Below are positions 3,921 through 33,737 of a stretch of 34,179 bases of DNA, piece by piece. This DNA comes from Planctomycetota bacterium. Its GTDB lineage: Bacteria > Planctomycetota > UBA1135 > GCA-002686595. The DNA is taken from assembly GCA_016779225.1 (NCBI GenBank), contig JADHNZ010000034.1, positions 1-34,179 on the forward strand, read 5' to 3'. Each line of letters opens with the position of its first letter. The stretch's first letter is position 1. The notes under the pieces were generated by a model. It made no database searches and had not been told where the DNA came from. It worked only from the letters and a program-made list of their open reading frames with translations. A program made the translations under genes and the position numbers.

Positions 3921-4754
3921 TCAGGGCGCGGCGTCCGGATCGTCCTCCTCGGGCCTGCGCATCGGGGAGAGCATGGCGCGGATGGAGTCGGGCGCGCGGA
4001 AGTACTGAGCAGGCCTCCCGGGCGCGACCTCTGATTCGTCCAACCGCATGCTGAGCATCTCCTCCTCGGCGCAGGGCTCGAGCCAGCCCGGGACCTTGCG
4101 CACCTTGCGCTGGAAGTTGCCGGGCTCGAGACGAACTCCCCACACGGCCTCGTAGACGCGGCGCAGGTCGCTGATCCGGAACGGCCCCGGCTCGAACGCC
4201 GAGGCGAGGGTCGTGTCCTCGAGGCGCTGGCGCAGGGCCTCGAGGGCGTCCTCGAGAATCTGCCGGTGATCGAAGGCCAGCTCGAGCTGCCCGTCGAGGA
4301 TCTCGTCCACGCCGATCAGGTCCGCGAAGGCCGCATCCGAGCCGGCCTGAGGGGTGGGAAGCTCGGGGATCACGGCCCACCAGGCCACGGTGACCACGCG
4401 CATGCGCGGGTCGCGGTCGGGGTCCCCATAGGCACCCAGCTGCTCGAGGTGGCGCGGCCCGCTCTCGATTCCGGTCTCCTCGGCCAGCTCGCGGCGAGCC
4501 GCCTCCTCCAGGCCCTCCCGTGGGAGCACGAAGCCGCCGGGGAGAGCCCAGGCCCGCTCGTGGGGCGGCGTGCCGCGCTGCACGAGGAGCACATGCAGGC
4601 GCCCGCCTTCGAGGGTGAACACCACCACATCGACCGTGACCGCGAACGCGGGGAAGGCCGAGGGGTCGTAGGCGGCGTCGGGCGATGCGCCGGCCCCCTC
4701 ACCCCCAGCACTGCTGGGGGTGCCGCTGGAGGGCCTTCGGCGGGCAGAAGCCAT
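3921..4754 (-). CDS. NUDIX hydrolase fused to a C-terminal NrtR-type winged-helix domain (Nudix-related transcriptional regulator-like)
   Basis: The NUDIX box is intact (GGFVLPREGLEEAARRELAEETGI = G-x5-E-x7-REUxEExGU). The C-terminal part has NrtR-like motifs (RRVYEAVWG, NFQRKV, GRPAQYFRA). Confidence 0.65.
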   Translation of the reverse strand: MASARRRPSSGTPSSAGGEGAGASPDAAYDPSAFPAFAVTVDVVVFTLEGGRLHVLLVQRGTPPHERAWALPGGFVLPREGLEEAARRELAEETGIESGPRHLEQLGAYGDPDRDPRMRVVTVAWWAVIPELPTPQAGSDAAFADLIGVDEILDGQLELAFDHRQILEDALEALRQRLEDTTLASAFEPGPFRISDLRRVYEAVWGVRLEPGNFQRKVRKVPGWLEPCAEEEMLSMRLDESEVAPGRPAQYFRAPDSIRAMLSPMRRPEEDDPDAAP

Positions 4755-4768
4755 GCCCGAAGACTAGC

Positions 4769-4804
4769 TTCTTATCGACTTGACACGAACCCCCGGGGCC
4801 ATTA
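4769..4804 (+). promoter_or_regulatory. Candidate sigma70-like promoter (TTGACA, 17 nt spacer, TATTGT) in the divergent intergenic region
   Basis: TTGACA lies at 4769-4774. It is followed by a 17-nt spacer and then TATTGT, which matches TATAAT at 4 of 6 positions. It points toward the ARH-vWA gene. Confidence 0.2.
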
Positions 4805-5190
4805 TTGTCCCCCATACAAAAAGCGCCAGGGGCCGCGTTCGGACGCTGCTCCTCCCGCGCTGGAACCTCCGCGAGACGCACCCCGCTCGCCTTCGCACCC
4901 CTTGCGGCGACCCAGCTGGCTCCCCGTCAGCCGCTCGCCCCTCCACACCGCCCCCCCTCGCTCCGCGGGGGGCTGCTGGCCCCCGGCCAGTCCTCGAGCG
5001 CGCCGCGTCGCGGCGCTGCTCTCCCCCCCAGGCCCCGCCCTGGAGGCCTCCACCCCTCCCTGGACCCCGCGCTCCCATCGGGCACGGCCAGGGCCCGCAC
5101 CCCGGACCTCAACGCTCCGCGGCGCAGCGCGGACACCTCCCCCATGGGAGGCGCCCCAACCCCACGAAGACACTCCAAGACTCCCAGACG

Positions 5191-7015: not shown

Positions 7016-7073
7016 GGCCGACCGCTTGCGGTTGGCCTCAAAAAGGCGGAGGGCCGACCGCTTGCGGTTGGCC
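7016..7073. repeat. Two copies of a 22-nt imperfect palindrome, GGCCGACCGCTTGCGGTTGGCC (7016-7037 and 7052-7073)
   Basis: The direct duplication is read directly from the sequence. Each copy folds as a hairpin (GGCCGACCGC/GCGGTTGGCC). It shares a GGCCGACC core with the hairpin at 7082-7115. Confidence 0.7.
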
Positions 7074-7081
7074 CCAGACAA

Positions 7082-7115
7082 ACGGAGGGCCGACCCCAAG
7101 GGGTCGGCCCTCCGT
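7082..7115 (-). terminator. Strong GC hairpin (about 16 bp stem: ACGGAGGGCCGACCCC aa GGGGTCGGCCCTCCGT) just downstream of the tRNA 3' end; probable terminator
   Basis: A perfect inverted repeat is read from the sequence. On the minus strand it is followed by TCCGTTTGTC. It is positioned a few nt after the tRNA CCA end. Confidence 0.4.
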
Positions 7116-7121
7116 GTGGAT

Positions 7122-7198
7122 TGGTAGCGGAGGCGGGACTCGAACCCGCGACCTCAGGGTTATGAATCCTGTGCTCTAACCAGCTGAGCTACCCCGCC
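7122..7198 (-). tRNA. tRNA-Met (CAT anticodon), 77 nt with encoded CCA; elongator-type, but tRNA-Ile2 (lysidine) cannot be excluded
   Basis: The reverse complement reads GGCGGGGTAGCTCAGCTGGTTAGAGCACAGGATTCATAACCCTGAGGTCGCGGGTTCGAGTCCCGCCTCCGCTACCA. The D arm is GCTC/GAGC, the anticodon loop is TTCATAA, and the T arm is GCGGG-TTCGAGT-CCCGC. The acceptor stem is 7 bp with two G-U pairs. Confidence 0.9.
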
Positions 7199-8537: not shown

Positions 8538-8650
8538 CCCAGCCAGCGGCTTGAGGGAGGCCCAGCCAGCGGCTCGAGGGAGACTCAGCCAGCGGCTTGA
8601 GGGAGACTCAGCCAGCGGCTTGAGGGAGTTCCAGCCAACGGCTTGAGCCG
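8538..8650. repeat. Tandem direct repeat, 23-bp unit (AGCCAGCGGCTTGAGGGAGACTC), about 5 copies
   Basis: Copies begin at about 8541, 8564, 8587, 8610 and 8633, with point variants. The period is not a multiple of 3. The array is intergenic between the ppx stop and the cupin start. Confidence 0.85.
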
Positions 8651-13817: not shown

Positions 13818-13937
13818 GCTTGGCACGGGAGCGCTGTACTTGCTTGGCACCGGAGTGCTGTGCCTGCTGGGCACCGGAGTGCTGTGCCTGCTGGGCACCG
13901 GAGTGCTGTGCCTGCTGGGCACCGGAGTGCTGTGCTC
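13818..13937. repeat. Tandem direct repeat, 24-bp unit (CTGGGCACCGGAGTGCTGTGCCTG), about 5 copies
   Basis: Copies begin at about 13818 (degenerate), 13842, 13866, 13890 and 13914. The array lies immediately upstream of the metallophosphoesterase start and downstream of the anti-sigma stop. Confidence 0.85.
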
Positions 13938-18638: not shown

Positions 18639-19187
18639 ATGGACATCTTCCAGGACTGGACCATCGCCAGCACCTATGTGCTGTGCTCCGCCGTCGGGGG
18701 CGTGATCCTCACCCTCCAGCTCGTGCTGATGATGTTCGGCGGGGACGCCGACTTCGACGGCGACCTCGAGATCGACGACGGGATGGGCCTGCTGAGCGTG
18801 CGCTCGGTGGCCTCCTTCCTCACCTTCTTCGGCCTCGTCGGTCTCTGGGGCCACCAGAACGACTGGACCCCCGCCATGAGCGCGGGCGCAGGCCTCGTAG
18901 CCGGCATGGCGATGATGGTCCTCGTGGCCTGGGTGATGCTGCAGTACCGCAAGCTCGACTCCTCGGGCACTGTGGATCCGAGCGGCGCGATCGGTGGGAC
19001 GGCCGTGGTCTACCTCACCGTCCCGGCGGAGGGCGCCGGCCGCGGGAAGATCACGGTGAGCCTCCAGGGCCGGACCCACGAGTTCCAGGCCACGACCACG
19101 GGCCCCACCCTCCCGACCGGCGCGGAGGTCCGCGTCCTGCGTCGCGTCAGCTCCGACACCTTCGAGGTCAGCGCCCTCGACTCCTGA
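18639..19187 (+). CDS. NfeD-like membrane protein (OB-fold C-terminal domain), partner of the downstream flotillin
   Basis: It has N-terminal transmembrane helices and then a soluble beta-rich domain (GRGKITVSLQGRTHEFQATT...VRVLRRVSSDTFEV). It lies directly upstream of an SPFH protein. Confidence 0.65.
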   Translation: MDIFQDWTIASTYVLCSAVGGVILTLQLVLMMFGGDADFDGDLEIDDGMGLLSVRSVASFLTFFGLVGLWGHQNDWTPAMSAGAGLVAGMAMMVLVAWVMLQYRKLDSSGTVDPSGAIGGTAVVYLTVPAEGAGRGKITVSLQGRTHEFQATTTGPTLPTGAEVRVLRRVSSDTFEVSALDS

Positions 19188-19240
19188 GACCCACCGAGGG
19201 AGCGCGGCCCGCGGGCCGGCCCCTCCGCCCCACGAAAACC

Positions 19241-20878
19241 ATGCACTGGACCCCCCTCCTCGCCCTCGCACCGCAGGGCCCCATCGACAGCGTTCCCGTA
19301 GAGGTGATCATCGGCATTGCGCTGGTCGTCATCTTCGCGGGGTTCCTGATGATCCTCAGCCGGCGCTACAAGCGCTGCCCCTCGAACAAGGTGCTGGTCG
19401 TCTTCGGCCGCACCAGCGAGGGCCAATCGGCCAAGCCGGTCCACGGCGGCGGCGTCTTCGTCTGGCCCCTGATCCAGGACTACGCCTTCCTGTCCCTGGA
19501 GCCCATGCAGATCGAGATCCCGCTGCAAGGCGCTCTGTCGCGGGAGAACATCCGCGTCAGCGTCCCCAGCGTGTTCACCGTCGCCATCGGCACCCAGCGG
19601 GAGATCATGAGCAACGCCGCGGTGCGCCTGCTCAACCTCGCCCGGGGTGAGATCATCAAGCAGGCCGAGGACATCATCTACGGCCAGCTGCGCCAGGTGA
19701 TCGCCTCGATGCCGATCGAGGAGATCAACCGCAACCGCGAGGTCTTCCTCGCCAATGTCCAGTCCAGCCTGGAGCCCGAGCTGGCGAAGATCGGCCTCGT
19801 CCTGATCAACGTCAACATCAAGGACATCACCGACGACTCGGGCTACATCGAGGCGATCGGCCGCAAGGCGGCCTCCGAGGCCATCAACCAGGCCGAGATC
19901 GATGTGGCCCAGCAGCAGAAGCGCGGGGCCATCGGGGTCGCGGAGGCCGAGAAGGAGCGCGCCGTGCAGGTCGCCGAGGCCGAGAAGGTGCGCGACATCG
20001 GCACCAAGACCGCCGAGCGCGACCGGTCGATCAACATCGCGGACCTCGAGAAGGCCCGCGTGATCGGCGAGCAGCGCGCCAGCTTCGAGCAGGAGGCCCA
20101 GGTGCGCGACGCCGAGCGCGAGATGCGCATCCGGGTGGCCGAGGCCAACGCCACGGCCGTGACCGGCGAGAACGAGGCCAAGGCTCGCATCGCCAACACC
20201 AATGCCGACCTCCAGGTGCAGGAGGCCGACGCCTTCCAGCGCTCGGAGACCCGTCGGCGCGAGGCCGAGGCCCTCGTGAAGGAGGCCCAGTTCATCGCCG
20301 AGGCCCGGGCTGCCGAGGCCGAGGCCAAGAAGATCGAGGCCGAGAAGCGCGCCGAGCTCGAGGCCTCCGCCAAGGCCATGAAGGCCCAGACCATCGTGGA
20401 CGCCGAGGCCGAGGCCGAGAAGACCCGCATCCGCGCCCAGGGCGAGGCGGCGGCGATCTTCGCCAGGCTCGAGGCCGAGGCGAAGGGCCAGTACGAGATC
20501 CTCGCCAAGAAGGGTCAGGGTCTGCGCGAGATCGTCGACAACTGCGGCGGTGCGGACGCGGCCTTCCGCATGCTGATGCTGGAGCACATCGACCACCTCT
20601 CGGAGGTCGCGGCCCAGGCCATCTCGAACATCAAGTTCGACAAGGTCGTGGTCTGGGACGGCCAGGGCGGAGGCGACGGCAAGACGGCCACCTCGAACTT
20701 CCTGCGGGGCCTCGCAAGCTCCCTCCCGCCGGCGCTCACCATGATGCGCGACATCGGCGGGGTCGAGATGCCGGAGTTCTTCGGACGCCTGCTGGAGGAC
20801 GCCTCCGGCAGCGACAGCCCGAAGGATGCCGCCGCCGACTCCAACGAGGCCAGCGACGAGGAGGAGAGCGAGGCCTGA
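19241..20878 (+). CDS. Flotillin-family SPFH/band-7 protein (YqiK/FloA-like) with a long Ala/Glu-rich coiled coil and an acidic tail
   Basis: It has an N-terminal transmembrane segment (VEVIIGIALVVIFAGFLMIL) and an SPFH domain. It also has an extended EA-repeat region (AEARAAEAEAKKIEAEKRAELEASAKA...). The start is placed at the ATG at 19241 (MHWTPLL), in frame with listed ORF 18683..20878. Confidence 0.85.
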   Translation: MHWTPLLALAPQGPIDSVPVEVIIGIALVVIFAGFLMILSRRYKRCPSNKVLVVFGRTSEGQSAKPVHGGGVFVWPLIQDYAFLSLEPMQIEIPLQGALSRENIRVSVPSVFTVAIGTQREIMSNAAVRLLNLARGEIIKQAEDIIYGQLRQVIASMPIEEINRNREVFLANVQSSLEPELAKIGLVLINVNIKDITDDSGYIEAIGRKAASEAINQAEIDVAQQQKRGAIGVAEAEKERAVQVAEAEKVRDIGTKTAERDRSINIADLEKARVIGEQRASFEQEAQVRDAEREMRIRVAEANATAVTGENEAKARIANTNADLQVQEADAFQRSETRRREAEALVKEAQFIAEARAAEAEAKKIEAEKRAELEASAKAMKAQTIVDAEAEAEKTRIRAQGEAAAIFARLEAEAKGQYEILAKKGQGLREIVDNCGGADAAFRMLMLEHIDHLSEVAAQAISNIKFDKVVVWDGQGGGDGKTATSNFLRGLASSLPPALTMMRDIGGVEMPEFFGRLLEDASGSDSPKDAAADSNEASDEEESEA

Positions 20879-21390: not shown

Positions 21391-23502
21391 CTAGCGCGCG
21401 CCCTGGGCCCCGGCCACCGCCACTCCGTCCACCTCGAGCTCGAGCGACCACCGCGCGGCGCCGCTGCGATCGCTCACGAGGAGCGGCTCGTCGTCCTCCG
21501 CCAGGAGCACCTCCTCCGCGAGGGTCGCTCCCGCTGCGTCGGTCCAGCGCAGGCGCCAGGCGCCCGCAGCCTCCTCCCGCACGGCCGAGGGCGCGTCGAA
21601 CGCCGCCAGGTCCAGGCTCCACCCTGCGTCGCTGCGCCGCGGCGTCGCCTGCGGTGGCAGCGGCCACGGCCGCGCGCTCACCTCGAGCGTGCGACCGGCG
21701 AGCGGTCCAACGAGGCGCAGGTCCGCGAGCGTCCCGGCCAGGGACCAGGTGAGCTCGCCGCGGAGGTCGAAGCAGGCAAAGGTTCCCTCGCCCGTCCGCA
21801 CCCAGGCACCCGTCGCACGGCCTGACCAGCCCGCGCCGGTGGTCCACTCCACGCTCGGCGGATCCTCCCCCGGCAGCGACGGCGGAACGGCCACGCGCAG
21901 GTGCGCGGTCCGCGCGGGCACGACCTGGGCCAGGGCGTCGGCAGGAGCCCCGAGCCAACGGGCCGGCAGCAGGTCCTGGCCGGGCTCCGGCCGCAGGAGC
22001 AGCCTCCCCGTGCCGGCGGCTCCGAGGAGGGCGCGGGGCACCAGCAGTCCAAGGCCCTCGCTGCGCCAGCGCACGCCGAGGTCGCCGCAGAGCGCCCGCC
22101 CAAGATCGCCGGGCTGAAGCAGACGCACGCGCGGAGAGAGAGGCCCGCCGAGGTCCGGCCCTCCCTCTGCCAGGCGGCGGCTGAGGAGCAGTGAGGGGTC
22201 CCGCGGAACGAGCAGGCGCTCCGCCGGGTCCTCGACCAGGATCCAGGTCGGCTCGAAGCCCGCCTCCTCAGCGGCGCCCTCGAGGTCTGCGCGCGCGGCG
22301 TCCACCGCGCGACCGGCCTCGCCGAGCGGCACGGCCACGCCGTGCGCCAGCCAGGCGAAGATCGGCACCACCAGCGCCGGCAGCAGACGCCTGCGCAGGT
22401 CAGGCACCGCGGTGACCATGACGCCCAGGCCGGCACACAGCACGACCGAGGCGAGCAGGAGGTTCTCCGCCCCGTCCAGGCTGAAGCTCGCCGCGCGGGT
22501 GTCCGCATCCAGCAGCAGCGCCAGCAGCACGGCAGCCCCCCAGCCGAGGGTCGCCCGGCCCCAGAACCGCGGTGCGGTGCGGCCGGCGATGAAGGCGGGG
22601 TGCAGGAGGAGAGCGAGTGAGAACAGCGCGGCGAGGATCGACAGGGGGCCCAGGCTGTCGAGGGGCGCGGGCATGAGGAGCACGCCGACCTTCTCCGCCG
22701 TCAGCGGGATCGCGAGCAGGTGAGCGGAGACCTCCTGGAAGGTGCGCGCGTCCTCTGGAGCGAGGCGCGCGCGCAGGGCGTACTCCGCGGACACGCACAC
22801 CGCACACAGCAGCGCGGTCAGGAGCGCCGTTCGCGTGCGCTGGCCCGAGCTGCGGAAGCGGCGCCCCGAGGCGGCCTCGAGGATCCCGTAGAGCGGGGGC
22901 AGATAGAGGGCCCAGCGCCCGCAGAGCCCGGCGAGGGTCGCCAGCAGGAAGGCGCGGCCCAGACGGCCCGCGGCCGGGTGGTCGCGATCCTGGCGCGCGC
23001 GCAGGAGCGCCGCCGCGCCGAACAGGCCGAACGCAAGGGCCAGCAGCTCGCCGCGCAGGTGCAGCTGCGGGACCGCCGCCACCGGAAGGGGGTGCACGAG
23101 GAGCAGGACCGCAGCGGCCAGCCCGCCCGCGCGCGCGCTGTCCTCCCCCACCCAGGGCGCCAGCGCCCGACGCACGACGAGGCGCAGGCCCATGGCCACG
23201 ACGAGGAGCACCGCCAGGTTCTCGAGGCGCAGCCAGGTCGCGGCCTGGGGCGTCCAGACCTTCTCGGCAGTCCAGATCGACCGCGAGAGGAAGAGGGACA
23301 GGGCCGCGAGCGGCCGGCCGTCGAGGTGAGGGACGCGGTAGAGCGAGGCCGGCCCCTTGCCGCTGAGGCCCGCCAGCAGCTCGAGGTCGTCGCCGAAGGG
23401 GCCCGCCGTGAGGGCCGGAGCATGGGCCCAGGCCACCAGCAGGCCGAGGGCCACGAGCCACGGCAGGGCGAGGCGGCGGGGAGCGTCCTCCATGGGCGTC
23501 AC
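21391..23502 (-). CDS. Large polytopic membrane protein with a C-terminal extracytoplasmic domain; function unknown, possibly a GT-C-like glycosyltransferase fold
   Basis: About 12 hydrophobic segments span the first ~420 aa. A soluble C-terminal region of about 280 aa follows. A DD/DE-containing first loop (FGDDLEL) resembles GT-C loops. The gene ends 11 nt upstream of queF on the same strand. Confidence 0.55.
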
Positions 23503-23533
23503 ATTAGCCCAGGGGCGCCGCTACCGTGTCGGG

Positions 23534-23986
23534 ATGCTCTCCACCTTCGAACCCCTGTGGCGCGCCGCCGAGGGCGTGGACCTCAGCGACTCCGCCGCAG
23601 CCGTCGCAACCCTGACCCAGCGCCTCGACCCGGCGAGCCCTGAGGGCCAGGCCCTCAGCTCCGCCCTGTGCGACCTCCTCGAGAGCGGAGCGGTTGCGGA
23701 CCGTGGCGCCCCCCCCGTGCGCTGGAGCCGCGTGGCCAAGGCCGGCCCCGAGACCGGCGCCTTCTCGATCGATGTGGTGCACATGAACGGGGCAGGCCCG
23801 CGCCACACGCACCACGAGGGCGAGGTGAACTGGTGCATCGCCCTCAGCGGCGAGCCGCGCTTCGACGGCCAGGGCCCCGGCTGGGTCGCGTTCCCTCCGG
23901 GCTCGACCCATGTGCCGACCGTGGAGGGCGGGGAGATGCTGATCGTCTACCTCCTGCCCAACGGAGCGGTCGAGTTCCACGCCTAA
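23534..23986 (+). CDS. Small cupin-like protein of unknown function
   Basis: It has a His-rich segment (RHTHHEGEVNWCIALSGEPRFDG...GSTHVPT) typical of cupin metal sites. The start is at the ATG at 23534 (MLSTFEPLW), inside the longer listed ORF. Confidence 0.45.
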   Translation: MLSTFEPLWRAAEGVDLSDSAAAVATLTQRLDPASPEGQALSSALCDLLESGAVADRGAPPVRWSRVAKAGPETGAFSIDVVHMNGAGPRHTHHEGEVNWCIALSGEPRFDGQGPGWVAFPPGSTHVPTVEGGEMLIVYLLPNGAVEFHA

Positions 23987-24131
23987 GGCGTGCAGGGGGC
24001 ACCGCTGGGAGGGCCACCGGTCCCGCGACGCCCCAGAGGTGTCCAAACCAAGGCCGTGAGTCGGGACAGGGACTTGGCGCCGTGACCTGCCGGACCCAGG
24101 AGGGTTGGGCTTCGGCCCCTCGCCCGACTCC

Positions 24132-25544
24132 ATGCCCATGCTGCGTGCCCTCCTGCCCCTGACCCTGGCCCTCCTCCTCCCCGACCCGGCATCCACCCGC
24201 GGGGGCATCCCGTGGGAGGCCGACTGGGCCGCCGCGCGCGATCGAGCCCGCACCGAGAACCGCGTCGTCTTCCTCGCGGTGAACATGGACGGCGAGCGCG
24301 CGAACGACCGCCTGGCCAAGGAGGTCTACCGGGAGAAGGCCGTGGTCGCCCTGGCCGAGCGGACGGTGCCCCTGGTCGCCAGTGCCTTCGCACACGGGAG
24401 CGGCGTCTGCCCGCGCTTCGGCGGGCTGCGCTGCGCCGAGCACCAGCAGGTGGACATCCGCGCGCGGGACGAGGTCCTCCAGCCCGACGCGGACGGGTTC
24501 GTGGTCGCGCCCCAGCATGTGTTCCTGGCGCCCGACGGCGCCGTGCTGCTCTCGGTCCCCTACGAGGTCACCGCGGACGAACTCGAGTGGTGCCTCGCCG
24601 AGGCCCTGCGCAAGCACGACCCCGAGGCGGAGGTGCGCCCGAGCTCCGGCGCGCGCCCGCCCAAGCGGCTCGTCATGGACGGGCTGGCCCCGGCCGAGGG
24701 GGCCGGAGGCCCCGGCCCGCCTACCCGCGAGGAGGTCCTCGAGCTGCTGCGCGAGCTCAAGAAGGGCACCCTCGAGGACCGAGGGAGCGCGGTCCGCCGC
24801 ATCATGACGGCGGACGAGGACGAGGCGCGCGAGTTCGCGGTCCAGGAGCTGCGCCGGTCCAACGGCGGCGGCAAGCGCGGCGGCGGAGGCGGAGGCGGCG
24901 CGACCTCGAACGAGGCCGGCTCGGGCCCGTGGGCGCGTCAGGAGGCCCTCGTGCGCCAGATCGGGCGCCTGTCCCCGCCCAGCTGGTGGGTGGTCGTCGA
25001 GGAGTTCGCAGGCAACGGGGACGAGGACCTGCGCGCCGAGGTGGCCGCCGCGCTGGAGCAGCTGCAGGCTCCCGACTCGAAGCGCCTGGTGGCCACGGCC
25101 CTGCGCAAGGAGCGCGTCCCCGCGCTCGAGGGAGCCTGGCTGCGCGCGCTGGCCAGCGTCGCGCCCGACGACCGCGCCTCGTTCGCCGCGCTGGAGAAGG
25201 CCATCCGCAAGCACAAGGAGGGGCTGGTCCGTGTGCAGGCGCTCGTCGGCCTCGGCTGGCTCGCTCCGAGCGAGGAGCGCAATGGGCTCCTGCTCGAGTT
25301 CCTGGGCGGCGAGCGCGAGGAGCTGGCGCGCGCCGCGGCCCTGGGCCTGGCCCTGACGCGGGAGGCCGACCACCTCGAGGCCCTGAAGGCACGCGTGGAG
25401 GGTGCCTCCCCGGCCCTGGCGGGCGACCTCGAGGCCGCGATCACCGTGCTCGAGACGGGCAGCCTCGAGCCCCTCGGCGCCCCCATCGCCAGCTTGTGCC
25501 GAGACGAGGTCCCGCGGGAGCGGTTCTTCGGCATGGCCCGCTGA
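24132..25544 (+). CDS. Secreted protein with an N-terminal thioredoxin-like (Thioredoxin_7-like, no CxxC) domain and C-terminal HEAT/PBS-lyase-type helical repeats
   Basis: It has a signal peptide (MPMLRALLPLTLALLLP). The pattern WEADWAAARDRARTENRVVFLAVNMD...LAKEVYREKAVVAL resembles thioredoxin-fold DUF255/Thioredoxin_7 but lacks CxxC. The C-terminal half is made of repeated helical pairs (RAEVAAALEQL...VQALVGLGWL...RAAALGLAL). Confidence 0.5.
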   Translation: MPMLRALLPLTLALLLPDPASTRGGIPWEADWAAARDRARTENRVVFLAVNMDGERANDRLAKEVYREKAVVALAERTVPLVASAFAHGSGVCPRFGGLRCAEHQQVDIRARDEVLQPDADGFVVAPQHVFLAPDGAVLLSVPYEVTADELEWCLAEALRKHDPEAEVRPSSGARPPKRLVMDGLAPAEGAGGPGPPTREEVLELLRELKKGTLEDRGSAVRRIMTADEDEAREFAVQELRRSNGGGKRGGGGGGGATSNEAGSGPWARQEALVRQIGRLSPPSWWVVVEEFAGNGDEDLRAEVAAALEQLQAPDSKRLVATALRKERVPALEGAWLRALASVAPDDRASFAALEKAIRKHKEGLVRVQALVGLGWLAPSEERNGLLLEFLGGEREELARAAALGLALTREADHLEALKARVEGASPALAGDLEAAITVLETGSLEPLGAPIASLCRDEVPRERFFGMAR

Positions 25545-25590
25545 CGCTCGGGACCCAAGGGAGATCGGAGCCCGGGGCCCGGCCCGAGCA

Positions 25591-25820
25591 CAGCGGAGCC
25601 GGGCTTGGCCGGCAGCGCCCGAGCGCAGAGCAGCCGGGCTCGGCCAGCACCGCCCAAGCACAGAGCAGCCGGGCTCGGCCGGCACCGCCCAAGCACAGAG
25701 CAGCCGGGCTCGGCCGGCAGCGCCCGAGCGCAGAGCAGCCGGGCTCGGCCGGCACCGCCCAAGCACAGAGCAGCCGGGCTCGGCCAGCACCGCCCAAGCA
25801 CAGCGCAGCCGGGCTCGGAT
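25591..25820. repeat. Tandem direct repeat, 35-bp unit (CAGCCGGGCTCGGCCGGCACCGCCCAAGCACAGAG), about 6.5 copies
   Basis: Copies begin at about 25596 (degenerate), 25631, 25666, 25701, 25736, 25771 and 25806 (partial), with G/A variants at fixed positions. The array lies in the 380-bp intergenic region upstream of the three-paralog operon. Confidence 0.85.
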
Positions 25821-25926
25821 CCGCGTCCGGGTCCGAGCCCGACCCCGCAAGTGGGGTTCGAGGCCACTGCGCGCGCGCTAGGATGGGACCCGAGGGCGCC
25901 CCGCGCGGGCGCCCGGCCCCTGCCCC

Positions 25927-27453
25927 TTGCGACGCACCGCCCCGCTCCGACTCCTTGCCTGCGTGCCGCTCCTGGCGGCAGTCCCGCCCGCTCCCGCAGC
26001 GGGTGGCTCGCCCCTCCCCCCGCCCAAAGCCAGCGCGCAGCCGAGCCTCCGCGCCGACTTCGACGAGGCCCGAGCCGGGCTCCGTGCCCAGACCGCTACG
26101 GCCCTGGAGGACCTGGCCGAAGCCTGCCAGAAGGAGAAGGCCTACCTGCAGCGGGACCTGACCTACGACGCGGTGCTGAAGTTCGATCCGGACCACGCCA
26201 AGGCCCGCAAATACCTGGGCTACAAGCAGGACCGCAAGACCGGCGAGTGGTCGCGGCCGCGGGAGTACAAAGCCCCCAGGGACAAGGACCACGCCGCGGC
26301 CCTCGAGCTCCTCGAGCAGCGCGCGGGCGTGCTGGCGGGGCACACGGACCGGCTGCTCGCACTCTTGGAGGAGCACCGCGCCGACCTGCCCAAGGCGCGC
26401 TTCCAGCAGGAGGTCGATGAGCTCCTGGACGCTGACCCGGACTCCGAGCGCCTCCGCGCCATGGTGGGTCAGGTCAAGGTCGAGATCGACGGCCAGACGC
26501 GGTGGATGAGCAAGGCCACGGCGCTCACCCTGACCCAGCGCAAGGAGCAGCGCGCGGCCTGGGACGAGGCTCGCAGCGGCGCGCCCGAGCCCGCACCCGC
26601 TGAGGCCGAGACCTTCGAGACCGAGCTCGGGGTGACCTTCACCGGGGTGGTCGAGACCGAGCACTACCGGGTCCTGGCGAGCTCGGGCAAGGGTGAGGCC
26701 GCCGAGGTGGCGCGCCTCCTCGAAGCCCTCACCACCTGGATGCATCCGCTCCTCGGCACGCGCCACTCCCAGGGCCAGGTGCGCGTGTACCTGATGTCCG
26801 CCAAGGCCGGGGAGGACTTCACCGACAAGTTCCCGGGGATCGCGGCCACCGACAGGCTGCGCTACAAGGGCATCAACGGCGCCTGGATGGCGAGCAGCGA
26901 GCGCCTCGGCGTCTGGAACGGCACCAAGGAGAGCCGCGTCGACCAGGCCCTGCGCCTGATCATCAGCTATGCGCTGCTCGACACCTACGGCCGCACCGAG
27001 GACGGCACCTGGGTGAAGGGCGGCATGCCCGGCTGGATCGAGCAGGGCCTGGGCATCTATCTGGTCTGGCAGATGGCCGGGACCAAGCTCTCGCTGCAAA
27101 TCAAGGAGCGCGACTCGTCGGCAACGGGCCGCCCCGACTACATCGAGAACCTGCGCGATGAGGACGCCAACTGGATCACCCTCGCTCGGCGGATGATGGG
27201 CGGAGCGCGGAAGCCGAGCCTCGCGATCAGCCTCGGCAAGGACGCCATGGCCATGGAGCCTGACGACCTGCTGCTTGCCTACGCCGTCTCGGCCTGGCTC
27301 GTCGAGGGCCACGAGGCCGAGCTCGTCCACCGCATCCTCTCGCGCTGTGGCCAGCGCGAGGCCACCGTCAAGGTCTTCGAGGAGGAGCTCGGCATGCCCC
27401 TCCCGCGCATCGAGAGCGCCCTCATCGCCTGGCTCGACGAGGTCCGCAAGTGA
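25927..27453 (+). CDS. Secreted protein of unknown function, paralog A of a tandem triplet
   Basis: It has a signal peptide (MRRTAPLRLLACVPLLAAVPPAPAAG). It shares family motifs with the next two genes (EACQKEKAYLQR; DPDHAKARKYLGYKQDRKTGEW; GWIEQGLGIYLVWQ; DLLLAYAVSAWLVEG). Confidence 0.7.
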   Translation: MRRTAPLRLLACVPLLAAVPPAPAAGGSPLPPPKASAQPSLRADFDEARAGLRAQTATALEDLAEACQKEKAYLQRDLTYDAVLKFDPDHAKARKYLGYKQDRKTGEWSRPREYKAPRDKDHAAALELLEQRAGVLAGHTDRLLALLEEHRADLPKARFQQEVDELLDADPDSERLRAMVGQVKVEIDGQTRWMSKATALTLTQRKEQRAAWDEARSGAPEPAPAEAETFETELGVTFTGVVETEHYRVLASSGKGEAAEVARLLEALTTWMHPLLGTRHSQGQVRVYLMSAKAGEDFTDKFPGIAATDRLRYKGINGAWMASSERLGVWNGTKESRVDQALRLIISYALLDTYGRTEDGTWVKGGMPGWIEQGLGIYLVWQMAGTKLSLQIKERDSSATGRPDYIENLRDEDANWITLARRMMGGARKPSLAISLGKDAMAMEPDDLLLAYAVSAWLVEGHEAELVHRILSRCGQREATVKVFEEELGMPLPRIESALIAWLDEVRK

Positions 27454-28964
27454 GCATCCCCACCACCATGAGCATCCGCCTGCACCCCCTCCTCGCCCTC
27501 TCCCCGCTCCTGCTGGGCGCGGGCGCGCCCAGCCTGACCCTCGCGCCGAACCACGCGGCGGCTGCCGGGCTTCTCGCGTCGCTGCCCGCCGAGCGAGCGG
27601 ACTTCGACAAGGAGCTACGCGAGCTGCAGGGTCTCCTGGTGAGCGACCTGGAGCAGGTCGCGGACGCCTGCCAGAAGGTCAAGGCGTTCCTGCAGCGCAA
27701 CCGGGCCTACGAGCTGATCCTGGAGTACGACCCCGAGCACAAGAACGCGCGCAAGTTCCTCGGCTACAAGTACGACCGCAAGGCCGAGGAGTGGACCATG
27801 CCGCGCAAGCCGCGCGACCCCAAGGACGCCAGCGACGAGGCCGTCGCGGAGGCCGCGGCGGAGCGGGTCCGGATCCTGGGGGGCCACAGGCAGCGCATGC
27901 TGCAGCTCCTCGACGCCCACCCGGATCTGCCCCTGAAGCTCAAGAACCGCGAGCTCAAGCGGCTGGTCGCGCTCCTTCCCGACGACGCCGAGCTGCGCGG
28001 GATGCGACGCGAGGTGCGCAGCGAGGGCGAGGACGGGACGGTGACCTGGATGCTCGAGGAGAGCCTGCGCGGGAACAAGGTCCACAAGGAGAACGAGGCC
28101 CTGCTCAAGAAGATGAAGAGCGGCGCCCCCACCCCCACCGAGGAGCCCCTCGAGGACTGGGAGAAGGAGCTCGGGGCAGGGTTCCTCGACAAGGCCGCGG
28201 TGACCGACCGCGTGCGCGTCGTCGGGAACGCCTCGACCAGCGAGAACGAGACCGGCGCCCGGATGTGCCACATCATCTGGGACTACCTCGAGCACCTGTT
28301 CGGGATCGGCCTCGAGCCCTCGTACACCACCTATCACATCGAGGGCCGCTCGGCGAAGAGCAGCTTCCTCGGCAACTGGCCGGGCCTCGACCCGGACCAG
28401 GTCGAGTACCTCAAGGGGACCGGCGGCAGCACGCTCTCGGGGCGCGAGATGTTCCAGTCGGGCCCGACCAGCGACAACCGCGTAGACGGCTCGGTGCGCA
28501 TGTCCATCGCGATGTACATGGGGCGCAACTTCGGGGTCGGCTCGAGCACGGGCTGGGCGATCGAGGGCTTCGGCATGTACATCACGCACCAGCTCCTCGG
28601 CACTCGCCTGACCTATTTCATCCGGCGAACCGACTATGTCCAGAAGGGCAAGAAGCGGGACCTCCAGGACCCCAACGCGAACTGGATGAAGATGGCGCTC
28701 GAGGTCCTGACGGACGAGAAGCCCTTCAACCTGCCCTTCGCCATGGGGCGCGATGTGAACAACCTCACCCCGGACGACCTGCTGGTGTCCTACGCCCTGG
28801 CGGCCTACCTGCTCGAGGGCTGCGAGCCGGAGACGGCGACCACCGTGCTGTCCAAGATGGGGACCGAGGGCGTGGGCGGCGTGCAGGCCGTCGAGCAGAC
28901 CCTCGGGTTCGATATCGAGACGGTCCGGGACCGCCTCGCCCAGTGGCTGCAGGAGCGTGACTGA
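27450..28964 (+). CDS. Secreted protein of unknown function, paralog B of a tandem triplet
   Basis: Its start overlaps the upstream stop (GTGA; an alternative start is the ATG at 27468). It has a signal peptide. It carries the shared motifs DACQKVKAFLQR, DPEHKNARKFLGYKYDRKAEEW, GWAIEGFGMYITHQLLGTRL and LLVSYALAAYLLEGCEPE. Confidence 0.7.
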   Translation: MSIPTTMSIRLHPLLALSPLLLGAGAPSLTLAPNHAAAAGLLASLPAERADFDKELRELQGLLVSDLEQVADACQKVKAFLQRNRAYELILEYDPEHKNARKFLGYKYDRKAEEWTMPRKPRDPKDASDEAVAEAAAERVRILGGHRQRMLQLLDAHPDLPLKLKNRELKRLVALLPDDAELRGMRREVRSEGEDGTVTWMLEESLRGNKVHKENEALLKKMKSGAPTPTEEPLEDWEKELGAGFLDKAAVTDRVRVVGNASTSENETGARMCHIIWDYLEHLFGIGLEPSYTTYHIEGRSAKSSFLGNWPGLDPDQVEYLKGTGGSTLSGREMFQSGPTSDNRVDGSVRMSIAMYMGRNFGVGSSTGWAIEGFGMYITHQLLGTRLTYFIRRTDYVQKGKKRDLQDPNANWMKMALEVLTDEKPFNLPFAMGRDVNNLTPDDLLVSYALAAYLLEGCEPETATTVLSKMGTEGVGGVQAVEQTLGFDIETVRDRLAQWLQERD

Positions 28965-30448
28965 TGACCAGCCCGCTCACCCTCCTCCTCCCTGCCGTGC
29001 TCGGAGCCCCGATCCTGTGGGGGCCTGCGGTGCCCCTCCGGCCCGCGTCGAGCGCGAGCACACCGGGAGCCCCCGCGTTGGCCCGTCCCCAGGACGAGGC
29101 CCGGGCCGCACTCGACAAGCAGCTGGCCTGGGAGCTGGAGGGCCTGGCGGAGCGCTGCCAGCAGGCGAAGGCGTTCGTGGAGCGCAACGCCACCTACGAG
29201 CTGCTCCTGCGCTTCGACCCCGAGCACGCCAAGGCGCGCAAGACCCTGGGGCACAAGAAGGACCGCAAGTCGGGCGAGTGGACGGTCCCCGAGCGCAGCC
29301 GCCCCCCGAAGGCCGCCGAGGAGGAGATCGCTGCGCCGCTGCGCGCCGAGCGCGAGACCCTGCTGCGCGGCCATGTGGACGCGGTTCTGGTCCTGCTGGA
29401 CGGGCAGGAGCTGCCCGTCCGGATCCTGCGCCGGGAGGAGCAGCGCCTGCTGGAGCTGATGCCCGACCATGAGGGCCTGCGTGAGCGCACGGGCGAGGTC
29501 CGCGAGGGGGACTCGTGGGTGCTGCGGGAGACGGTCCACGCGCGCCTCACCCGCAAGGCGCACGAGAAGCTGCGCGGCGACCTGAAGGGGGCAGCCCCCG
29601 ACCCGGCCGAGGCCGCGATCGAGGCCGCGGAACAGACCTGGGGCGTCACCTTCTCCAAGGCCCTCGCGACGCCCGCCGTGCGCGTGGTCTCCGCGGTGTC
29701 GGACGGTGAGGCCAGCGAGACGGCGAAGCGAGCCCATGCGACCTACGCCTATCTGGATCAGCTGCTCGGCACCACGGACACCCTCGCCCAGGGAACGCTC
29801 TACCTGTTCGAGGGGCCCGCGGCCACGGCCGCGTTCTGCCAGGCGTACCCCGGGCTTGAGGAGGCGACCCGCAAGCTCTTCGGCGGACTCCTCTGCTCCT
29901 ACCTCGACCACCACCACGCCAACGCATCCAGCGCCAAGCGCGAGGAGCGCCTGGACGGGGCCGTGCGGATGAGCATCGCGCGGCACCTCGCGTGGACCAC
30001 CGGGACCTGGAGCAAGCACGGCTGGATCGCCGAGGGCTTCGGGATCTACATCACGCACCAGATGACGGGCACGCGCCTGATCTACACCGTGCGCGAGTCC
30101 GAGGGCAGCAGCTCCAAGGGCGGTGACAAGGTCGAGGACCGCATGAAGCGCAAGGACGCCGACTGGCTGGCGCTCGCGCGCACGACCCTCCAGGGCAAGG
30201 ATGCGCCGAAGCTGGCCTTCACCCTCGGGCGCGATGTGAACACCCTCACCCGCGGCGATGTGCTGGTGGCGAACGCCCTCGCGGCCTACCTGCTCGAGGG
30301 CTGCGAGCCGGGGACCGCCCTGCGGGTGCTCAAGCGAATCGGGCGGGACGAGGTCGGCTCCGCCAAGGCCCTCGAGGAGGAGCTCGGGCTCGACCCGCCG
30401 GCCCTCGAGCGGCGCCTCATCCGCTGGCTCGAGGAGCTGGGCAAGTAG
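28964..30448 (+). CDS. Secreted protein of unknown function, paralog C of a tandem triplet
   Basis: Its start overlaps the upstream stop as TGATG. It has a signal peptide (MTSPLTLLLPAVLGAPILWG). It carries the shared motifs ERCQQAKAFVER, DPEHAKARKTLGHKKDRKSGEW, GWIAEGFGIYITHQMTGTRL and LVANALAAYLLEGCEPG. Confidence 0.7.
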   Translation: MTSPLTLLLPAVLGAPILWGPAVPLRPASSASTPGAPALARPQDEARAALDKQLAWELEGLAERCQQAKAFVERNATYELLLRFDPEHAKARKTLGHKKDRKSGEWTVPERSRPPKAAEEEIAAPLRAERETLLRGHVDAVLVLLDGQELPVRILRREEQRLLELMPDHEGLRERTGEVREGDSWVLRETVHARLTRKAHEKLRGDLKGAAPDPAEAAIEAAEQTWGVTFSKALATPAVRVVSAVSDGEASETAKRAHATYAYLDQLLGTTDTLAQGTLYLFEGPAATAAFCQAYPGLEEATRKLFGGLLCSYLDHHHANASSAKREERLDGAVRMSIARHLAWTTGTWSKHGWIAEGFGIYITHQMTGTRLIYTVRESEGSSSKGGDKVEDRMKRKDADWLALARTTLQGKDAPKLAFTLGRDVNTLTRGDVLVANALAAYLLEGCEPGTALRVLKRIGRDEVGSAKALEEELGLDPPALERRLIRWLEELGK

Positions 30449-30482
30449 CGTGTCCGCTGGCCCCTCTGCGCAGGAGCCCCGC

Positions 30483-31757
30483 ATGGGGCTCCTCGAGCGC
30501 CTGCTGCGCTCGGCCGCGGGTCGGATCCTGCTGGTGGCGGCCAGCGTCGCGCTGCTCGCCGGCGCGAACACGCTCGAGCTGAGCAGCGCCCTGGCGGGCC
30601 GCAGCTTCGGCCCCGCCCTGGACGAGGGCGCCTTCTTCCTCTCCCAGCTCACGCGCTGGGGCCTCTGGGGAGCGGTCGCTCTCCTGGGCATCGTCCCCCT
30701 CATGCAGCTCAGCGGCCGCTGGAGTCGGCCCCAGCAGGTCCTGGGGCACCTGCTGCTGGCGGGCGCCTCCACCTGGGCAGTCGGGACGATCTGGAGCGCG
30801 CTGCGGCCGCAGCTGCCAAGCCCGTTCGACTTCAGCACGATGGAGGAGCTGCGTGGAGACCGCCCTGGCCCCCCGCGGGGCGAGCGAGGAGAGCGCGCCC
30901 CTGCGCCCGAGGATCCGGAGGAGGACCTGGAGGACCGCCCCCCGCGCAGGCAGGGGCGCTTCGACCCCCGCCGCGGACGGGGGGCCTTCGGTCGCGAGGA
31001 CGACACCCTCGACCGGTGGCTCACCCACGGCCTGCTCCTGCTGCTCTGCGCCGGGGGCGCCAGCCACCTGCGCTCCGAGGAGGCGCGCCGGCGGGCCTCC
31101 GCGCTCGCCATCGAGCGCGCGCAGCTCGCAGGCGAGCTCACCACCGCCCAGCTCGCCTCCCTGGAGGCCCAGCTGCGCCCCCACTTCCTGTTCAACGCCC
31201 TGCACTCGGTCGGCGCCCTGATGCGGCTCGGTCGCAGCGATGAGGCCCGTACGGCCCTGGTCACCCTGGGGGACCTCCTGCGCGGCACCCTCGACCGCTC
31301 GCGCGAGGGCCGCTCCACCCTGGCCGACGAGCTCGAGCTGTGCGAGAGCTACCTGGACCTGGAGCGGCTGCGCCACGGAGACCGGCTGGCGGTGACGACG
31401 ACCTGCCCGGAGGAGGCGCGCACCTGCGAGGTGCCGCCGCTGCTGCTGTTGCCCCTGGTCGAGAATGCCGTGCGCCACGGCCTCGAGCGCACGACCCAGC
31501 CCGTGGAGGTGCGCCTGCGCGTGGATCTCGCGGACGGACACCTCCAGCTCATCGTGGAGAATGATGGTCCCCCGCTCCCGCCCGAGGTGCTGCAGGCGGG
31601 GCAGGGCCAGGGCATCGGCCTCGCGAACACGCGCAAGCGCATCGGAACCCTGTACGGCGCGCGCGGTTCCATGACCCTTGAGAATCCGCCCTCGGGTGGC
31701 GCACGGGTGGTGCTCGGCCTGCCCTGCTCCCAAGGTGCACACGACCCGAGCTCCTGA
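30483..31757 (+). CDS. LytS/AlgZ-type sensor histidine kinase (His_kinase + HATPase_c) with a short transmembrane sensor and a charged disordered linker
   Basis: It carries the family signature LRPHFLFNALHSV followed by an HATPase region (LLPLVENAVRHG...GQGIGLANTRKR). It has N-terminal hydrophobic helices. The start is at the ATG at 30483 (MGLLERLL), in frame with listed ORF 30258..31757. Confidence 0.8.
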   Translation: MGLLERLLRSAAGRILLVAASVALLAGANTLELSSALAGRSFGPALDEGAFFLSQLTRWGLWGAVALLGIVPLMQLSGRWSRPQQVLGHLLLAGASTWAVGTIWSALRPQLPSPFDFSTMEELRGDRPGPPRGERGERAPAPEDPEEDLEDRPPRRQGRFDPRRGRGAFGREDDTLDRWLTHGLLLLLCAGGASHLRSEEARRRASALAIERAQLAGELTTAQLASLEAQLRPHFLFNALHSVGALMRLGRSDEARTALVTLGDLLRGTLDRSREGRSTLADELELCESYLDLERLRHGDRLAVTTTCPEEARTCEVPPLLLLPLVENAVRHGLERTTQPVEVRLRVDLADGHLQLIVENDGPPLPPEVLQAGQGQGIGLANTRKRIGTLYGARGSMTLENPPSGGARVVLGLPCSQGAHDPSS

Positions 31758-31829
31758 CCGTCCGTCAGCCCCCGCCGCAGCGTCCCCCACCGCCGCAGCG
31801 TCGCGCCGCCCCAGGGAAGCCCCGCTCCA

Positions 31830-32531
31830 ATGCCTCACCTTCGCACCCTCGTCGCCGACGACGAGCCGCTCTCGCGCGCCGAGCTGGCGGCCCTTGTCGA
31901 GCAGCACCCTGACCTCGAGCTCGTCGCCACCTGCTCCGACGGCCCGAGCGCTCGGGCCTGCCTCGAGACCGCGGAGGTGGACCTGGCCTTCCTCGATGTG
32001 GAGATGCCCGGCTGCAGCGGCCTCGAGGTCGTGCGCTCTCTCGGCCCGCGTGCACCGCGCGCCGTGGTGTTCGCCACCGCGCACCCCGAGTTCGCGGTCG
32101 AGGCCTTCGAGGTGCGCGCCATCGACTACCTCCTCAAGCCCTACGACCCCGAGCGCTTCGCCGCCGCCGTCGAGCGCGCACAGGACAGGCTCGAGGCCTC
32201 CGGCGAGGGCGCCCGCCTCGTACTCCGCAAGGAGGGGCGCATGGAGGTCGTGGTCCTCTCCTCCCTGCGCTGGGTCGAGGCCGCGGACCAATATGTCCTG
32301 CTGCACACGACCGAGGGCAACCGCCTGATGCGGGAGTCCATGGCGCGCATGGAGGCGGCCCTCACCCCCCACGGCTTCCTGCGGGTCCACCGCTCCGCGA
32401 TCGTCCCCCTCGCCGCGGTCCGCGAGCTCCGCTCCCTCCCCTCGGGCGGGGGCGAACTGGTCCTCGAGGGCGGGGACCGGGTCCCGGTCAGCCGCTCCAG
32501 GGCCCCCGAGGTCCGCAGGGCCCTGGGCTGA
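31830..32531 (+). CDS. LytTR-family response regulator (receiver + LytTR DNA-binding domain)
   Basis: The receiver domain has the conserved aspartates (VADDEP...DLAFLDVEMPGCSGLEV...IDYLLKP). The C-terminal LytTR fold is indicated by VVLSSLRWVEAADQYVLLHT...FLRVHRSAIV. Confidence 0.85.
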   Translation: MPHLRTLVADDEPLSRAELAALVEQHPDLELVATCSDGPSARACLETAEVDLAFLDVEMPGCSGLEVVRSLGPRAPRAVVFATAHPEFAVEAFEVRAIDYLLKPYDPERFAAAVERAQDRLEASGEGARLVLRKEGRMEVVVLSSLRWVEAADQYVLLHTTEGNRLMRESMARMEAALTPHGFLRVHRSAIVPLAAVRELRSLPSGGGELVLEGGDRVPVSRSRAPEVRRALG

Positions 32532-32675: not shown

Positions 32676-33737
32676 ATGAAGCTCCTCACCGCCCTCTCCG
32701 TTCTCCCCGTCGTGGCCCTGGGGAGCACCCTGGCCACCGACTACACCGCCGACCGCAGCCTGCGCGTGGAGCGCCGGATCCACACCACCAGCGAGGTGGT
32801 GGACATGGTCATGATCGTCGACGGAGAGGAGATGGAGGGGCGGGGCTTCGGCGGCGGCGCGAGCGAGCGCACGCTCACCATCACCACCCTCGACAAGGTG
32901 CTGGAGCACGAGGAGGGCGCCCCCACCCGCGTCCGCCGCACGCTCGAGACCCTCAGCACCGAAGGCGTCATGAGCATGCGCGGCGAGGAGCGTGACTTCG
33001 AGCGCGCCAGCGACGCCGAGGGCGCAGTGCTCGACCTGAGCCGCGCCGAGAACGGCGACCTCGAGGTCAAGGTCGAGGAGGGCTCCGAGCCCGAGGGCGC
33101 GGACTTCGCGTCCCTCGAGCTGACGCTCGAGCTCGACGCCCTCCTGCCCACCGAAGAGGTGGAGCCCGGCGGGACCTGGGACCTCGAGAGCGAGGCGATC
33201 GTCCGCGGCCTCGGCATGGGGCTCGAGGGCTCGCTCTTCGGCCGTCCCTCCATGGAAGGTGACCGTGGCGGCCGCGGCGAGGGCGGCGGCGGTCGCGGAG
33301 GCCGCGGTGGCTTCGGCGGCGGCCGTGGCGGCTTCAGCCTGGAGACCATGATCGGCCTCGAGTGGAAGGGCGAGGCCAAGCTCGCCGAGGAGACCGAGAC
33401 CGTCGACGAGCTCGAGTGCCTGGTGATCGAGCTCGAGCTCGAGGCCGACGGCGCCCTGCCCGAGCGCGAGTGGGGCGGCGGCCGTGGCGGCCGTGGCGGC
33501 GGCGGCGGAGCCCTGGAGCTGAGCGCCCCGCTCTCCTGGCTGGAGACCACCGTCGAGGTCGAGCTCGAAGGCCGCATGCTCTGGAGCCTGGCGGAGAACC
33601 GCCTCGTGAGCCTCGAGCTCGAGGGCGACTTCACCATGCAGATGGAGCGCACCATGTCCCGCGGCGACCGCGAGATGGAGATGAGCTCCACCACCGAGGG
33701 CGCCGTCGAGTTCAAGGTCTCCGTCGAGGCCGAGTGA
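32676..33737 (+). CDS. Secreted, highly acidic protein with Gly/Arg (RGG-box-like) repeat tracts; function unknown
   Basis: It has a signal peptide (MKLLTALSVLPVVALGSTLA). The body is Glu/Leu-rich and has two GGRGGRGGFGGGRGG-type tracts. Codon usage is strongly GC3. Confidence 0.5.
   Translation: MKLLTALSVLPVVALGSTLATDYTADRSLRVERRIHTTSEVVDMVMIVDGEEMEGRGFGGGASERTLTITTLDKVLEHEEGAPTRVRRTLETLSTEGVMSMRGEERDFERASDAEGAVLDLSRAENGDLEVKVEEGSEPEGADFASLELTLELDALLPTEEVEPGGTWDLESEAIVRGLGMGLEGSLFGRPSMEGDRGGRGEGGGGRGGRGGFGGGRGGFSLETMIGLEWKGEAKLAEETETVDELECLVIELELEADGALPEREWGGGRGGRGGGGGALELSAPLSWLETTVEVELEGRMLWSLAENRLVSLELEGDFTMQMERTMSRGDREMEMSSTTEGAVEFKVSVEAE

Follow-up and report, generated by a model that had tools for sequence, protein, structure and literature searches.

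The stretch of DNA analyzed here (hereafter, the window) comprises 34,179 nucleotides (nt) of a chromosomal contig with 73% guanine–cytosine (GC) content from a marine member of the Planctomycetota (assembly GCA_016779225.1, contig JADHNZ010000034.1, positions 1 to 34,179), and its housekeeping genes include those for glutamine synthetase, ferrochelatase, a Glu/Gln-type class I tRNA synthetase, and adenosine deaminase. Our analysis centers on three tandem genes for paralogous proteins that look exported, together with the genes for a histidine kinase and a LytTR response regulator that follow them. From 23.3 kb to the window end, a codon-position GC screen marked as real genes on the plus strand a PnbB-like gene, a gene for a HEAT-repeat protein, the three paralogs, the kinase, the regulator, a gene for a 353-amino-acid (aa) protein, and the start of one more gene.

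The paralogous open reading frames (ORFs) lie on the plus strand at 25927..27453 (paralog 1, A-type, 508 aa), 27450..28964 (paralog 2, B1-type, 504 aa), and 28964..30448 (paralog 3, B2-type and adjoining the kinase, 494 aa); paralog 1 equals NCBI entry MBL6721516.1, "hypothetical protein ISQ08_08890" of Planctomycetes bacterium. The GC content at third codon positions of all three ORFs (0.90–0.94) fits that of the 73% GC genome, which argues that they are real genes. Aligned over their full length, they share 32–41% pairwise identity, and their scores against the family profile described below, all above 500 bits, are far beyond chance. The coordinates and the end-to-end alignment bear out an earlier note, made from the sequence alone, that had described three head-to-tail paralogs within 25927–32531, and the N-terminal and C-terminal conserved blocks quoted there were both found. 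The same note had given every paralog its own signal peptide. Hydropathy places a hydrophobic segment within the first 30 residues of all three, as in 136 of 163 full-length family members, whereas the cleavable peptide itself is a prediction from hydrophobicity; this N-terminal region has low confidence in the predicted model. On these features, the three proteins look exported.

The histidine kinase (30483..31757, plus strand; 424 aa) matches PF06580 at 75.6 bits (cut-off 25.2) and HATPase_c at 46.3 bits (cut-off 26.4), and its H-box, HFLFN, lies at residue 234. A hydropathy scan found four hydrophobic segments (residues 15–31, 60–76, 87–106, and 180–196), with a 72-aa charged loop rich in Arg, Pro, Asp, Glu, and Gly between the third and the fourth. 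The response regulator (31830..32531, plus strand; 233 aa) combines a receiver and a LytTR DNA-binding domain (Response_reg, 72.5 bits; LytTR, 75.4 bits), and its acidic pocket is visible as a DD pair and the Asp of FLDVEMPG. These Pfam matches confirm the order of a PF06580-type kinase and a LytTR regulator after the paralogs, but the kinase is not LytS-type in the strict sense in which it had been labeled: neither 5TMR-LYT nor GAF was matched by Pfam at E≤0.1, and without the 5TMR-LYT sensor domain it is not LytS proper. Since the best NCBIfam scores of the regulator, 131.7 bits for BtsR (cut-off 246) and 98.8 bits for LytR (cut-off 375), both stay under their cut-offs, it is not an equivalog of either. 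A literature search on Planctomycetes with LytTR found nothing relevant.

The gene junctions are tight, and their exact form depends on the start codons chosen. Between paralogs 1 and 2, the paralog 1 stop (TGA, 27451–27453) and a GTG at 27450 do produce the GTGA overlap that had been reported; however, an alternative start for paralog 2, the ATG at 27468, is kept in the orthologues P0001 and P0002 and lies directly before the hydrophobic segment (throughout, single family members carry P numbers and loci from other genomes L numbers). This ATG may be the true start, yielding a 498-aa protein and leaving a 14-nt gap with no overlap. The junction of paralogs 2 and 3 has no alternative start, and its stop (TGA, 28962–28964) and ATG (28964–28966) form a TGATG with a 1-nt overlap, as claimed. 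The claimed 34-nt spacing between the paralog 3 stop (TAG, 30446–30448) and the kinase ATG at 30483 is likewise present, and an in-frame GTG at 30450, if used as the kinase start, would cut this gap to 1 nt. In locus L022, the kinase gene as called and the last family gene share 4 nt. The stoichiometric co-translation that had been read into these junctions is an inference: overlaps are seen in some lineages, and gaps of ~35–65 nt in L008 and L016.

Paralogs 1–3 gave no match beyond noise to Pfam or NCBIfam at E≤0.1. Nonetheless, orphan status was rejected: a word-index search with one paralog, or with a six-sequence profile, returned 3 proteins—two close orthologues and one relative at 41% identity—and missed the orthologues of paralogs 1 and 3, whereas an exhaustive HMMER profile search of 1.84 billion representatives recovered at least 712 clusters (defined at 50% identity) at E≤1e-3 and 407 at E≤1e-30. 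Rarity by word index is thus unreliable, and apparent orphans in high-GC genomes need to be re-checked before they are labeled rare. Nearly all of the 150 listed family clusters are 460–535 aa long and match end to end. Every taxonomically labeled member belongs to the Planctomycetota, all eight loci from a species-genome collection come from Planctomycetota metagenome-assembled genomes, and every database name on a family member reads "hypothetical protein." The view that these motifs match no family that can be named therefore stands with respect to curated Pfam and NCBIfam models and database names, but the proteins have many relatives and a recognizable fold. What emerges is a sizeable family, so far confined to the Planctomycetota, that has no name, curated model, or described function. 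Three members (P0054, P0144, and P0146; 818–839 aa) carry an additional C-terminal region of ~350 aa; these regions are related to one another, have no Pfam match, and resemble nothing in the fetched loci.

The fold of the family came from predicted structures. A first AlphaFold model, built from six sequences, reached a predicted local distance difference test (pLDDT) score of 78, and a second, built from 70 diverse members, reached a pLDDT of 91.4 and a predicted TM-score of 0.86. In structural comparisons, the highest values fell to M9 collagenases (Grimontia hollisae collagenase, 14.3; ColT, 12.8; ColG, 12.6), followed by lugdulysin of family M30 (11.4), M1 proteins including puromycin-sensitive aminopeptidase, ERAP1, and other aminopeptidases (10.8–8.1), the M4 enzymes thermolysin (9.0) and LasB (8.2), and M61 aminopeptidases (7.7). 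About 190–230 residues were aligned per match, and the first model gave the same ranking; a Foldseek search of that model against the PDB returned collagenase G as its best, though weak, match (E=0.79). Because nearly all of the 29 best structural matches are MA-clan metallopeptidases, the C-terminal ~275 residues (~228–504 of paralog 2) are assigned, on the predicted models, to the thermolysin/collagenase gluzincin (MA-clan) catalytic-domain fold. Sequence profiles point the same way at sub-threshold level: Peptidase_MA_2 matched in 4 of 70 members (best E=0.025) and Peptidase_M61 in 2 of 70, a scan of C-terminal domains gave Peptidase_MA_2 13.1 bits against a cut-off of 32.4, and the positions of two such weak matches agree with the order of the fold. 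The best local hhalign match to an M1 profile pairs GW..EGFGLYLT with FWLNEGFTvY (P=0.018), the M1 helix that carries the third zinc ligand. The relation to peptidases is one of modeled fold, not of sequence statistics.

The N-terminal domain is helical and of a different kind. Positions 34–92 of the family profile match a designed consensus TPR protein in the PDB (E=1.9e-7), designed TPR proteins are the only PDB matches of whole-length profiles, and Pfam TPR models give only sub-threshold matches, in 8 of 70 members. Since one hairpin and no array is covered by the match, the N-terminal conserved block is described as a TPR-like hairpin motif by profile similarity. In the model, this hairpin comes first, and the domain also contains a pair of beta-hairpins, in each of which one Trp is invariant or nearly so. 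The profile and structure searches that the earlier note had proposed thus returned no curated enzyme family, but they did place the proteins on a gluzincin peptidase fold with a TPR-like N-terminal block.

The fold is conserved without the residues that define its catalytic site. None of the 172 family members examined has an HExxH motif in the peptidase-like domain; the six HExxH occurrences among them all lie in the N-terminal part, at residues 70–164. The only conserved His is H97 (69%), within the N-terminal TPR-like block, and the peptidase-like domain has none. Counting back by the M1 spacing, the sequence reads V349, R350, and I353 at the His and Glu positions, and in a forced hhalign alignment the HELaH motif falls on M355–R359 of paralog 2; neither placement offers zinc ligands. 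Paralogs 2 and 3, in contrast, keep the Glu of the GWxxEGFGxY motif, as do 59 of 70 aligned members and 124 of 163 counted by motif; paralog 1 and the other A-type copies have Gln there. The equivalence of this Glu to the third zinc ligand is drawn from the local profile match and the order of helices, not from superposed coordinates. Throughout the family, HExxH is missing, and with it both His zinc ligands and the catalytic Glu; the motif of the third-ligand helix alone is kept. Across 70 members, several charged residues are strongly conserved—E265 (100%), R344 (99%), E456 (97%), D346 (94%), R386 (91%), D443 (90%), R350 (89%), and E372 (84%)—and they sit in and around the two central helices that would hold the active site.

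The three copies in the window belong to groups that recur elsewhere. In a neighbor-joining tree without support values, copies in the first position separate from those in later positions: the former (A) group unites paralog 1 with the first copies of L005, L008, L013, and L016, and the latter unites paralogs 2 and 3 with the second copies of the same four loci. The closest grouping of paralog 2 is with the second copy of L005, a locus probably from the L022 lineage. For paralog 3, the partners are P0012 and the copy beside the kinase in L008; the 90%-identity cluster of P0012 in turn contains the copy beside the kinase in L022. By this tree, A, B1, and B2 are old subfamilies retained in the same order across lineages, and their layout was inherited and not produced by recent local expansion. 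Because each old copy has been kept in order, distinct, non-redundant roles for A, B1, and B2 are suggested, and the three may possibly form a mixed complex.

About 17 independent lineages were sampled for gene neighborhoods, with 4 loci contributed by a metagenome scan, and tandem family copies occur in about 10 of them. The window and its 85–99% identical relatives share one order: the HEAT-repeat protein, three family copies, the kinase, the regulator, and the 353-aa protein. This order also holds in L022, a widespread marine lineage with contigs of up to 514 kb, with one opposite-strand gene before the 353-aa protein, and L008 and L016 carry two copies followed by the kinase, the regulator, and the 353-aa protein. 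Synteny of the paralogs with the kinase and regulator, which had been raised earlier as a point to examine in other genomes, thus recurs in three diverged lineages, and the pair adjoins the family in 4 of the ~17 (the window, L008, L016, and L022). Lineages with the pair have kept it even as their family proteins diverged to ~30–40% identity. Elsewhere, L009 has the HEAT-repeat protein, one copy, and the 353-aa protein, with the upstream membrane protein and PnbB present and no kinase or regulator, and L010, on a short contig, has one copy and then the 353-aa protein. Two copies with no LytTR pair on the sequence examined were seen in L013, L019, L021, and L023, and a single copy with no LytTR pair in L001, L011, L012, L014, L024, and L025. 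Judged by gene order, one group of lineages carries the two-component pair as an optional insertion that separates the family genes from the 353-aa gene.

The two flanking genes are conserved as well. Homologues of the exported HEAT-repeat protein (24105..25544, plus strand; 479 aa; HEAT_2 at 28.5 bits) are encoded immediately before the first family gene in L002, L003, L005, L006, L008, L009, and L022, and homologues of the secreted acidic 353-aa protein (32676..33737, plus strand), which has no family match, follow the family genes in L008, L009, L010, L016, and L022, with or without the pair in between. Neither protein gave a PDB or family hint to its function. The 353-aa protein is very acidic, with Arg/Gly-rich loops (GGRGGRGGFGGGRGG), repeats at 33283–33332 and 33477–33508, and no solved-structure match; the charged loop of the kinase, which contains a 27-nt repeat (30939–30990), is similar to these loops in composition. 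Farther upstream, a gene whose 703-aa product is rich in membrane segments and matches no family (21391–23502, minus strand) adjoins the PnbB-like gene (23357–23986, plus strand), whose product belongs to the 4-hydroxylaminobenzoate lyase family, and the placement of these two genes is unchanged in L002, L003, and the distant L009. Family genes have M28 or M1 metallopeptidase genes no more than a few kb away in L016 (9810–11759, minus strand), L022 (16422–18770, plus strand, and 18898–19521, minus strand), L023 (7177–8886, minus strand), and L024 (10995–12782, plus strand). The M28 protein carries a PDZ domain in L016 and L022, and a Sortilin/BNR-PDZ protein is encoded near family genes in L014 and L023. 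By their raw occurrence, these neighbors may hint at a link to extracytoplasmic protein processing.

Upstream of paralog 1, at 25879..25886 on the plus strand, lies a −10-like promoter box, TAGGATGG, which is its sole occurrence in the window and sits ~40 nt before the gene. Among the 17 loci examined, the same octamer was found only in L003, L005, and L008, each time 40–50 nt upstream of the first family gene, and TAnnnT variants occupy the equivalent place in L001, L009, L012, L013, L014, and L016. We infer that the box may act as a promoter element, and its recurrence at one place across lineages suggests that transcription of the family genes begins independently of the HEAT gene. A role of the octamer as an upstream start codon was rejected, since the ATG within it does not share the reading frame of paralog 1. 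The HEAT gene and paralog 1 are 382 nt apart, and this spacer also holds a 35-nt tandem unit repeated 6.8 times (91% matches; 25582–25818). This array was considered as a set of regulator-binding sites or an RNA element and rejected: it is not in the 95%-identical L003, and likewise not in L002, its folding is unremarkable against shuffles (z=−1.2), and it has no Rfam match. Further tandem repeats at 7016–7095, 8538–8647, and 13818–13935 (units of 36, 23, and 24 nt; 2.2–4.9 copies) suggest, together with this array, that the genome accumulates short tandem repeats.

Taken as a whole, the explanation we favor is that the paralogs are exported pseudo-peptidases with a binding role, expressed together with the adjacent two-component pair and probably under its control; as a complete chain, we put this at slightly under an even chance, and the assignment of the modeled fold is much firmer than the chain built on it. 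The paralogs would be periplasmic or envelope modules that bind peptides or proteins, the three of them together with the kinase and the regulator would be carried on one transcript, and the regulator would feed back on its own operon and on the downstream gene for the 353-aa protein. With all three canonical catalytic residues missing, a non-proteolytic binding role is favored, and the paralogs most likely do not cut peptides. The "uncharacterised envelope or secreted system" under two-component control that had been proposed for this locus survives in that the family has no curated model, looks exported, and is linked to a PF06580/LytTR pair, but its fold is a known one and the link to the pair holds in some lineages only.

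Several results count against this explanation. On the side of the fold, hhalign comparison with an M1 profile of Planctomycetota LTA4H-like proteins was not significant (probability 1.8–2.5%), a PDB sequence search with the C-terminal profile returned nothing relevant and no peptidase, and all Pfam peptidase scores lie far below their gathering cut-offs. On the side of function, the conserved charged residues could make up an active site of another kind or bind a metal. The neighbor-joining method used for the subfamilies gave no support values, and a scan with promoter and terminator consensus sequences found nothing above shuffles. Finally, most lineages with the family lack the kinase–regulator pair, and control by it cannot, for that reason, be a general property of the family.

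The charged residues are the starting point of one alternative, in which the paralogs would be catalytically active and hydrolyze substrates at a non-canonical catalytic or metal site that is built on the gluzincin scaffold from E265, D346, E372, E456, R344, and R350. These positions are 84–100% conserved over diverse members, which is more than a structural role needs, they lie in or beside the two helices that form the active site in the gluzincin fold, and the Glu of the third-ligand helix persists in the 124 members counted above; however, the lack of any conserved His in the peptidase-like domain and the Gln of the A-type copies are hard to square with such a site, and we consider it unlikely. 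To our knowledge, HExxH-less catalysis on a gluzincin fold has no precedent, and a narrow literature search on gluzincin pseudo-peptidases yielded neither a precedent nor anything else relevant. The adjacent pair might have been inserted into a conserved cluster in one clade and regulate something else altogether, in which case its position would carry no meaning: it occurs in only 4 of the ~17 lineages, and these four share the HEAT/family/353-aa neighborhood, maybe through a single insertion event. Yet the order has been kept despite the divergence of the family, the kinase itself has strongly diverged (phmmer scores fall from 925 bits against itself to 172–365 bits), and the gaps are very short or replaced by overlaps. 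An order preserved through such divergence, with genes so closely packed, argues for selection for co-expression, and we regard a meaningless adjacency as quite improbable.

In another alternative, the paralogs would act as extracytoplasmic co-sensors that bind a peptide or protein ligand and pass the signal to a kinase lacking its own sensor domain, by analogy with FimS/AlgZ. The kinase has four hydrophobic segments and no recognizable sensor domain, the B2-type copy is always its neighbor (with the 4-nt overlap in L022), and FimS, the partner of AlgR, has been proposed to read the levels of proteins encoded by the operon that it controls (PMC5979040). The FimS partners are membrane-embedded pilins, however, whereas the paralogs look soluble after export, and most lineages have no adjacent kinase, with L009 keeping the whole neighborhood without the pair; this arrangement is, in our judgment, improbable to much the same degree as a chance neighborhood. 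More specific still, and very doubtful, is the proposal that the A, B1, and B2 pseudo-peptidases assemble into an extracytoplasmic complex that captures a peptide or protein ligand and reports to the sensor-less PF06580 kinase. Were it true, a LytTR two-component system would have taken a degenerate protease fold into service as its receptor.

Placement on the gluzincin fold, combined with the family-wide loss of the motif, turns a set of "hypothetical proteins" into a testable question: whether they are binding modules or unusual enzymes, and which partner they act with. The A/B gene order and the recurrent LytTR link provide experimental handles in the few genetically tractable Planctomycetota.

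Elsewhere in the window, a gene for a NUDIX/NrtR-type regulator (3921–4754, minus strand) is divergent from a gene (4780–6981, plus strand) that encodes an unusual fusion of an ADP-ribosylglycohydrolase and a von Willebrand A domain. The sole RNA family match in the window is a tRNA-Met with anticodon CAT (7122–7198, minus strand).

Among known systems, the M9 collagenases (ColG, ColH, ColT, and that of Grimontia hollisae) share the predicted C-terminal fold with the paralogs at 10–11% identity. Unlike these enzymes, the paralogs have no Peptidase_M9 match, no HExxH, and no accessory collagen-binding domains, and their N-terminal domain does not match the collagenase activator domain. They differ from the M1 aminopeptidases, Peptidase_MA_2, and Peptidase_M61, all clan MA gluzincins, in that every member of the family is without HExxH in the peptidase-like domain. 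On the signaling side, FimS (AlgZ) of Pseudomonas aeruginosa, the kinase partner of the LytTR regulator AlgR, spans the membrane with four segments and is without a periplasmic domain; it has been proposed to monitor the levels of envelope proteins encoded by an operon under its control, and it lacks the canonical ATP-coordination motif (PMC5979040). The window kinase, in contrast, keeps a normal HATPase_c domain, and its neighboring genes are unrelated to pilins; the likeness to FimS is one of analogy only. Relative to LytS–LytR and BtsS–BtsR (YehU–YehT), the window pair differs in a kinase without 5TMR-LYT or GAF and a regulator that scores under the equivalog cut-offs, and it shares with both systems the PF06580 kinase core and a regulator that joins a receiver to a LytTR domain.

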